Below are positions 60,538 to 60,946 of a stretch of DNA of 64,000 bases, one piece after another. The notes under the pieces were generated by a model. It made no database searches, was not told the origin of the DNA, and saw only the letters and a program-made list of their open reading frames with translations. The translations under genes were made by a program, and so were the position numbers. Source of the DNA: a virus (Duplodnaviria; Heunggongvirae; Uroviricota; Caudoviricetes); the IMG/VR virus record IMGVR_UViG_3300029305_004468; one strand, given 5' to 3'. Positions within the stretch are counted from its first letter, which is position 1, and each line of letters begins with the position of its first letter.

Positions 60538-60946
60538 ACTATTCCTCCTTTCTATAAAATTTTAGGTGCTCTAAATTGTATAAATTGAGAAGAATCTTTC
60601 TTCTTCCTTGTGTCTTTAATCGTTTTGCCTCTGCGGAGTTCGTAGAGACGGTGGGCCAACATTATGGCAACATAGAAACGGTCGTCCGTTTTGATTGTTA
60701 TATTTTGTCATGCGTTTATTTGCATAATAAAATAGCGCTGGTGCTTCCAAGAGTGTCTTTACACTCGACCAACGCTCTCCGGCTTCAGTTGGGTTATACC
60801 GGAAGTTCAGACTGTCGCATTCTCATATAATATCCGATGAGATTCAACCGCTCAGTCGTTCAGCGTCCCATATTGGGTTCGCCCCTGTCTTCCACCTCTG
60901 GAATTCCAAGTCAATCAGGTCAAATTTTATTTCTGTGGTTTATGGA
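60538..60946 (-). ncRNA. group I intron-like structured element (element B) between the terL stop and the portal start
   Basis: Shares the motifs of element A. + strand CCTCTGCGGAGTTCG (60632-60646), GTTCAGACTGTC (60805-60816) and CAGTCGTTCAGCG (60853-60865). On the - strand these read R-like GCUGAACGACUGAG, then a P8 hairpin UCUCAU-...-AUGAGA that differs in sequence from A but keeps the stem (covariation), then S-like GACAGUCUGAAC, then P9-like hairpins. The P/Q region is less clear than in A. Confidence 0.35.

Follow-up and report, generated by a model that had tools for sequence, protein, structure and literature searches.

A compact group I intron predicted inside the large terminase gene of a Caudoviricetes virus

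The region called element B in the stretch of viral DNA considered here (64,000 nucleotides, henceforth the window) is very probably a compact group I intron without an ORF, which interrupts the terL gene on the minus strand (60973..60687). As predicted from the joining of its exons, the annotated gap of 410 bases between terL and the portal gene consists of a 287-base intron and, after it, the final 44 codons of terL, and terL would accordingly be a three-exon gene of 613 amino acids rather than an ORF of 480 amino acids next to a 410-bp gap. The identification as a group I intron is supported by the restoration of the exons, by P1, omega-G and P10, by covariation, and by variants at the same site that bear endonucleases. 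A preliminary description of this DNA had proposed an intron-like structured RNA, with a core related to that of a second element (A), lying between terL and portal. Exon restoration, splice-site features and covariation bear out the nature of the element, but not its location, as the intron lies inside terL and starts 27 nt within the annotated ORF.

The terL gene and its exons

All long ORFs between about 18 kb and the window's end are on the minus strand, including the two that flank element B, namely the terL ORF (60947..62389) and the portal ORF (58990..60537). The motifs as written in the preliminary description therefore have to be reverse-complemented to give the RNA in question. No ORF (translation table 11) spans 60538-60946 on the gene strand, in agreement with the non-coding gap of 410 bp noted there, but 60552-60686 is predicted to be exon 3 of terL: the third frame of the minus strand, 3′ of the stop of the terL ORF, reads ..DDRFYVAIMLAHRLYELRRGKTIKDTRKKKDSSQFIQFRAPKIL*. 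When terL is joined after CAU (H, last base 60974) to GAC GAC CGU (first base 60686), translation continues in frame to a stop at 60552, giving the protein ..NIMH|DDRFYVAIMLAHRLYELRRGK..APKIL* across the junction of exons 2 and 3. The ligated RNA is predicted to read ..AUUAUGCAU|GACGACCGU.. at this junction (also written ..AGAAACAUUAUGCAU|GACGACCGUUUCUAU..), and the spliced TerL to contain the peptide NIMHDDRFYVAIMLAHR across it. The proposed structure of the gene is as follows.

62670..62963, minus strand: terL exon 1, 98 codons, with Walker A CTRNFGKS, within ORF 62628..62963
62387..62669, minus strand: intron C (predicted), 283 nt, junction placed by tblastn to intron-less loci
60974..62386, minus strand: terL exon 2, 471 codons, ending ..AUU AUG CAU (I-M-H)
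60687..60973, minus strand: intron B (predicted), 287 nt, without an ORF, placed by the exon junction, P1/P10/omega-G, same-site introns, covariation and the covariance model R1 (171 bits)
60552..60686, minus strand: terL exon 3 (predicted), 135 nt, 44 codons, with the reading given above
60535..60551, minus strand: true spacer between terL and portal, with the RBS GGAGG (60548-60544) and the portal start UUG (60537-60535)

Only 14 nt, which carry the portal RBS, separate this terL stop from the portal start.

The spliced C-terminus, used as a search query, found 200 homologues. At least 10 intron-less homologues align without gaps to the joined exons 2 and 3 through MH|DDRFY..LAHRLYELRRG..FRAPKIL, and HDDR is continuous in 81 of the best 120 homologue clusters, while 12 end just past MH with similar tails. 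Examples of the tails found after MH are KHRCASVA (the ORF of this window), KQHCAYVA and TQSCASAA, and the end of the terL ORF, KHRCASVA*, is read-through into the element, as had been suspected. The residues at the junction, H, D, D and R (H|DDR), are invariant or nearly so in an alignment of 40 sequences. Exon 3 itself has an intact frame of 44 codons with around 80-85% identity to intron-less homologues, and the divergence is of the synonymous type.

The upstream junction can be read in a similar way. The intron-less homologues L001, L002 and L130 read ..SSVGNQA|KETFTK.. unbroken across the site of intron C, and the joined exons 1 and 2 match Pfam Terminase_6N with 24.2 bits, passing the cut-off of 22 only after joining. 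The portal gene directly downstream of terL matches phrog_2739 (E 4.6e-108), and the packaging and structural genes around element B are intact. When the spliced TerL sequence was compared to the PDB it gave just a marginal match to the Walker-B of T4 gp17, so a fold search was needed to establish the terminase identity. The intron-less homologue P0002 was modelled with AlphaFold (mean pLDDT 76.7), and the best structural matches of the model are large terminases, with HK97 TerL (6z6d) at E 2.9e-7 and the G20c nuclease domain at a target TM of 0.67-0.72; the P74-26 nuclease domain and herpesvirus terminase nucleases were also matched. The host gene of intron B is terL, on the basis of Terminase_6N, the terminase fold of the homologue and the adjoining portal gene.

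Intron B separates the codons of an invariant His and two invariant Asp (..NIMH|DDRFY..) in the C-terminal nuclease domain. In the P0002 model the last long helix begins at DD, directly after the intron site. By comparison with terminase nucleases in general, the Asp at the start of exon 3 would be a metal ligand, and we infer that these DD residues are catalytic.

A different reading of the gap would be an intergenic regulatory region between terL and portal, that is a promoter, a terminator, a leader or a small RNA. It would fit the lack of an ORF across the gap (table 11), and one promoter-like site does lie on the gene strand. A simple promoter or terminator was also the outcome against which the preliminary description had set its own interpretation. 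There is no enrichment in such sites: promoter-like sites number 2 against 2.8 expected from shuffled sequences, and terminator-like sites 1 against 0.8. One third of the gap codes for the conserved C-terminus of TerL and the rest has group I architecture with covariation, leaving the regulatory reading extremely improbable.

Splice sites and secondary structure of intron B

Several features by which group I introns are recognised are found in element B: a U•G pair in P1, omega-G together with P10, an ordered P3-P9 core with a pseudoknot and covariation, and restoration of the reading frame. The predicted elements are listed here in the order of the RNA.

60958..60979, minus strand: P1, AUGCAU|AA (60979-60972), loop ACAUCG and internal guide UUGUGCAU (60965-60958)
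60968-60964, minus strand: P10, UCGUU with the first five bases of exon 3, GACGA; covarying
60933..60957, minus strand: P2 hairpin, CUGUGG/CCACAG, with the conserved loop CAUAAUCCAUAAA
60918..60924, minus strand: 5′ strand of P3, UUUGACC, pairing with GGUUGAA (60849-60843); pseudoknot with P7
60863..60917, minus strand: J3/4 UGAUUGA and the P4-P5-P6 domain, from covariation and folding
60853..60864, minus strand: end of P6, J6/7 UGAA and 5′ strand of P7, CGACUG (60858-60853); the same as motif 3 (below)
60821..60849, minus strand: 3′ strand of P3 (60849-60843) and P8, UCUCAU-CGGAUAUUAU-AUGAGA (60842-60821)
60805..60820, minus strand: J8/7 AUGCGA and 3′ strand of P7, CAGUC-U-G (60814-60808), followed by AAC; includes motif 2 (below)
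60702..60804, minus strand: peripheral 3′ domain, with P9 (60804-60777), P9.1 and an inner hairpin (60776-60734) and P9.2 (60733-60702)
60687..60701, minus strand: 3′ tail AUAACAAUCAAAACG, with the conserved UAACA and then the terminal omega-G60687

In P1 the wobble pair U60974•G60963 marks the 5′ splice site (AUGCAU|AAAC), and a U•G is present here in all seven same-site introns (see below); likewise all seven end in G before GAY GAY, intron B at omega-G60687. P10 shows a compensated change tied to a synonymous one, as GACGA/UCGUU becomes GAUGA/ACAUU in two relatives that use the codon GAU. The P2 stem differs in each homologue with pairing retained (for instance UGCGG/CCGCA, AUUACGG/CCGUAAU and AACAUAG/CUAUGUU). 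Within the core P4 is CUUG/CAGG, P5 is UUCCA-GAGG-UGGAA, P6 is GCG..CGC with P6a CCC/GGG, P7 pairs as C-GACUG/CAGUC-U-G and P9 as UUCCGG/CCGGAG. P4 has just 4 bp, and neither P7.1/P7.2 nor P5abc is present. When the RNA is folded by MFE without constraints, P1, P2, P4-P6, P7, P8, P9, P9.1 and P9.2 are recovered and only P3 is missed, since it competes with P7 in the pseudoknot.

A 25-nt module, CGAGUGUAAAGACACUCUUGGAAGC (60743-60767 of the window, minus strand), is nested in P9.1. It is nearly invariant in four of the seven same-site introns (also L127, L134 and L136) and absent from the other three, and it contains UUGGAAG, a repeat of the P4/J4-5 sequence ACUUGGAA. The module may serve as a tertiary contact or represent a mini-insertion. 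A search for tRNA and tmRNA genes found none.

The structure suggests how the intron would be removed. In the terL-portal transcript the guide UUGUGCAU would pair with the last six bases of exon 2 to form P1, with U60974•G at the 5′ splice site, and the P3-P9 core would fold with its P3/P7 pseudoknot. A free guanosine bound in P7 would then attack the 5′ splice site, and the freed exon end, held by P1 and P10 (GACGA/UCGUU), would attack after omega-G60687, ligating exon 2 to exon 3 and restoring a TerL of 613 amino acids. Without splicing, TerL would end in the intron-encoded KHRCASVA and lose the conserved C-terminus DDR..HRLYELRR. As terL is an essential gene and exon 3 is both conserved and intact, splicing is very likely; it may be autocatalytic or assisted by protein.

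The two parts of TerL might instead be brought together by another route, such as a group II intron, translational bypassing or frameshifting, or as two polypeptides that assemble. Nothing specific points this way other than the silence of the Rfam group I model on element B. Rfam scans of the window gave no group II intron match, there is no reverse-transcriptase ORF, a bypass of 287 nt would far exceed the known hops, and the DDRFY of exon 3 has neither its own start codon nor an RBS context. With all group I hallmarks present in element B, we give these routes hardly any credence beside group I splicing.

Same-site introns in relatives and covariation

For comparison, contigs were fetched for eight homologues that are cut off after MH, and seven introns were aligned. 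In those contigs that extend far enough the exon ends in ATGCAT, the intron starts with A(A/C/G)(A/C)CA..TTGTGC(AT/CA), and it ends in ..TAACA..(A/T/C)G directly before GAY GAY. Lengths range from 243 to 1375 nt, those without an ORF being 243, 248, 287 (this window) and 297 nt. The longer introns of L127, L129 and L134 (1281-1375 nt) carry a GIY-YIG gene in the P9.2 loop, and in L133 a LAGLIDADG gene occupies the P6 loop (L6) at the same terL site. In L132 an RBS, a start codon and four codons remain where its relatives have the endonuclease gene, which points to gene loss. The copy in this window is without an ORF and empty alleles at the site are common among homologues; intron B may be a passenger or a post-loss form. 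A locus search in viral contigs starting from a single protein found intron-less alleles only.

The core alignment of the seven sequences has 93.5% of cells paired, compared to 31-47% when partners are slid by 1-3 columns, with changes on both sides in 21 of 40 pairs (2-6 in the slid controls), and none of 500 shuffles attains the observed value. From the P3-P9 core a covariance model of the B family, R1, was derived; it has at least 122 matches, which come from the at least 120 loci found by a core-pattern scan of viral contigs. In the family alignment (122 matches, 106 distinct), which was fitted to the model and so flatters the structure, 93.4% of cells are paired, against 42-50% with partners slid by 1-3 columns on the same alignment, the fairer control; 32 of 34 pairs change on both sides, a value again attained by none of 500 shuffles. 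Covariation is strong for P3, P5, P6, P8 and P9 in both the seven same-site introns and the 122 family members. P3, for instance, is fully (100%) paired in the seven sequences with changes on both sides in 4 of 7 pairs (7 of 7 in the larger alignment), and for P8 the corresponding counts are 5 of 6 and 6 of 6. P7 is nearly invariant, with one compensated change (CGACUA/UAGUCUG in L136).

In the window R1 finds only element B, and with 171 bits this is also the top-scoring match of the model. A lack of common secondary structure in covariation testing would have spoken against the preliminary description, but the structure survives such testing in the same-site and family introns of B. A and C lie outside the B family as judged by R1.

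These comparisons also bear on whether B is a decayed relic that no longer splices, terL being a truncated gene or pseudogene and the window coming from a defective phage or prophage. The absence of a homing endonuclease gene from intron B would fit such a view, and the remnant in L132 shows that decay does happen in the family. However, all core helices are intact in the best match of R1, the frame of exon 3 is preserved with synonymous-type divergence, P10 matches the exon, and the neighbouring packaging and structural genes are intact. A relic thus seems very improbable compared to an intron that still splices.

The relatives carry further introns and RNAs. A third terL intron site lies near residue 170, RG|(K/R)RA, just upstream of Walker B; it is empty in this window and occupied in L130, L133, L134, L135 and L137, with LAGLIDADG ORFs nearby in L133 and L137. 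Another group I intron is found at the end of the L127 contig (1-278), upstream of the terL fragment and adjoining an ORF with weak or faint Pfam matches (DUF4379, CapR, DUF723). It is detected by RF00028 at 62.1 bits, so that in relatives one gene holds introns that Rfam sees as well as introns that it misses. A RAGATH-18 RNA lies upstream of terL in L134 (50-110; RF03064, 58.8 bits, gathering score 44.9), and Rfam finds no counterpart of it in this window.

Motifs common to elements A and B

Three motifs had been described as common to elements A and B. Each occurs exactly once in both, on the plus strand as written:

motif 1, plus strand as written: 60628-60642 in B, 44951-44965 in A
motif 2, plus strand as written: 60805-60816 in B, 44971-44982 in A
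motif 3, plus strand as written: 60853-60864 in B, 45015-45026 in A

The catalytic core, at J6/7-P7 and P7′, accounts for motifs 2 and 3. A scan for these two alone in viral contigs gave many loci among the matches listed, and this abundance indicates that a broad class of phage group I introns has them in common. The P8 hairpin between them differs in sequence with its pairing retained (UCUCAU/AUGAGA in B, CUGG/CCAG in A), just as first described. An antisense reading of the motifs, as RNA of the plus strand, was ruled out, since it is on the minus strand that the group I architecture is complete and the exons are restored.

Motif 1 is another matter, as in B it is exon 3 coding sequence, 45-59 nt inside the exon, where UAC GAA CUC CGC AGA GGC encodes YELRRG. 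Homologues keep YELRRG in the protein and vary at synonymous sites, for instance TATGAACTGCGCCGAGGT and TATGAGATCCGTCGTGGA, and the match to A is therefore specific to the codon choice of this phage. The likeness between A and B (14 of 15 positions) is probably due to chance rather than an RNA motif, though a rough estimate of about 0.007 for such a match between two regions of around 400 nt leaves a small doubt. We also considered motif 1 as a common RNA element or as the trace of exon co-transfer between A and B; neither is supported, given that it codes for YELRRG and varies synonymously. The extra domain of about 140 nt that had been proposed for B is in fact a stretch of 162 nt between motifs 1 and 2, and consists of P9, P9.1, P9.2, the predicted 3′ splice site and 44 nt at the start of exon 3.

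Elements A and C

Element A matches the Rfam group I model RF00028 at 45290..44954 on the minus strand (49.9 bits, E 1e-11). The gathering score is 50, and this difference of 0.1 bit is why a default Rfam scan comes back empty. In the RF00028 alignment motif 3 comprises J6/7 and the P7 5′ strand, motif 2 comprises the P7 3′ strand and the AAC after it, the hairpin between them is P8, and motif 1 is the 3′ strand of P9 with AGG, the P9 hairpin being CUGCGG-CGAAAU-CCGCAG. The tape-measure ORF 45241..47604 (PF10145) has the element at its extreme 3′ end, and an SPP1-type holin gene follows downstream. The 5′ splice site is predicted to come after U45282, the U of a U•G in P1. With the flanks taken over 44805-45240, each candidate 3′ site leads either straight to a stop or to a tail of 17 amino acids that runs through terminator-like hairpins. 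Elsewhere in the window, nine copies of a 33-nt repeat are found at multiples of 66 nt (24840-26294, minus strand) inside ORF 24621..30107 (1828 aa), pointing to a large structural protein with a repeated domain.

Intron C, between exons 1 and 2, appears to be a further intron of terL, group I-like and different from B. A U precedes its first base (GCU|AAAC), and its last base is G (AUUG|AAAGAG). Its P7′ and P9 can be read by eye as AUGCUGAAC-UUAUAGGAAACUAUAAG, with an apparently variant P7 (CGCAU/AUGC-U-G) and P9 as UUAUAG-GAAA-CUAUAAG. It has no Rfam match, and R1 gives it just 6.4 bits with filters off; under the same setting element A reaches 10.9 bits (E 0.02), with only P6-P8 aligned. 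By these scores the three elements are distinct group I introns and not copies of one element.

Detection and spread of the family

The Rfam scan suggested earlier gave a divided answer, for element A scores just below the gathering score while element B has no match to RF00028 at E <= 10, nor at the gathering score, even when a 700-nt slice was searched. Similarly, RF00028 did not match the same-site introns of seven related loci at E <= 1; in Rfam scans of the related loci the only matches were the unrelated upstream intron of L127 and the RAGATH-18 RNA of L134. A match to RF00028 is an aid to detection and not a defining property of group I introns.

When intron B was compared by blastn to 50,697 phage records there was no match, and the core alone gave one weak match. 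The B-family consensus matched four isolate phage records, none of which is annotated as an intron. In one of these, Roseobacter phage CRP-118 (L280, OR420741.1, 35074-35183), a B-type core lies in a gap of 400 nt between two CDS labelled ‘ribonucleotide reductase’, with no intron annotated in the record. In viral contigs the model has 122 or more matches, often 2-3 per contig, and the core pattern is also present in 33 species-representative genomes or bins, mostly Bacillota. The bins with this type of intron are labelled as many different phyla.

We suggest tentatively, as something possible though doubtful, that introns of the B type form a distinct compact group I subclass that is abundant in uncultured viruses, invisible to Rfam and unannotated in deposited phages. 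The traits proposed for it are a 4-bp P4, a P5 capped by GAGG, the lack of P7.1/P7.2, conserved L2 and L9 loops, and a cargo site at P9.1/P9.2.

Comparison with known group I introns

A terminase-gene intron is known from Lactobacillus phage LL-H. The T4 td and Twort orf142 introns (IA2) have J6/7-P7 AACGACU(A/G), a P7′ of (U/C)AGUCUGAAC with a bulged U and a tail ..UAACA..AUG; their exons are joined in an essential conserved gene, and endonuclease genes are optional. Set against these sequences, intron B is alike in J6/7-P7, the bulged-U P7′, the UAACA tail and the essential host gene, but differs in lacking P7.1/P7.2, in having a very short P4-P6 with a 5-bp P5 capped by GAGG, and in having P9.1 and P9.2 as its peripheral elements. 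Element A is more like Twort than B is, with the P9 hairpin given above. RF00028 and intron B have the same order and topology of P1-P9, and element A, with the P7 core of B, scores 49.9 bits.

The terL gene of phages is an established place for group I introns: they are found in 5 of 52 Bastillevirinae genomes, with two or three in some genes; most of these introns hold endonuclease genes, often in a peripheral loop, and splicing has been demonstrated for some (PMC11878797). The Rfam and GISSD models under-represent phage group I variants (PMC11878797). Intron B is similar to the terL introns of Bacillus phages in the class of host gene, in occurring in Firmicutes-type phages and in its poor capture by Rfam and GISSD. 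In contrast to the Bastillevirinae introns the copy here is without an endonuclease gene, and its host is distantly related, the portal being around 30-34% identical to that of large Bacillus siphoviruses. Intron B fits the picture of the known group I introns in phage terL.

Discussion

The gain is mainly practical, in that the annotation is corrected and the packaging operon is tightly packed after all. What is known of group I introns is unchanged; the B family is one to which Rfam is blind and which is nonetheless common in viral metagenomes. The position H|DD, between invariant terminase residues, is the type of conserved site that homing endonucleases target, and an intron in the nuclease domain would make packaging by the phage dependent on RNA splicing. 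The same type of intron probably lies behind comparable ‘gaps’ and ‘truncated’ essential genes elsewhere. If introns of the B type do form a subclass, a dedicated model would mend many ‘split’ or ‘truncated’ genes in viromes.
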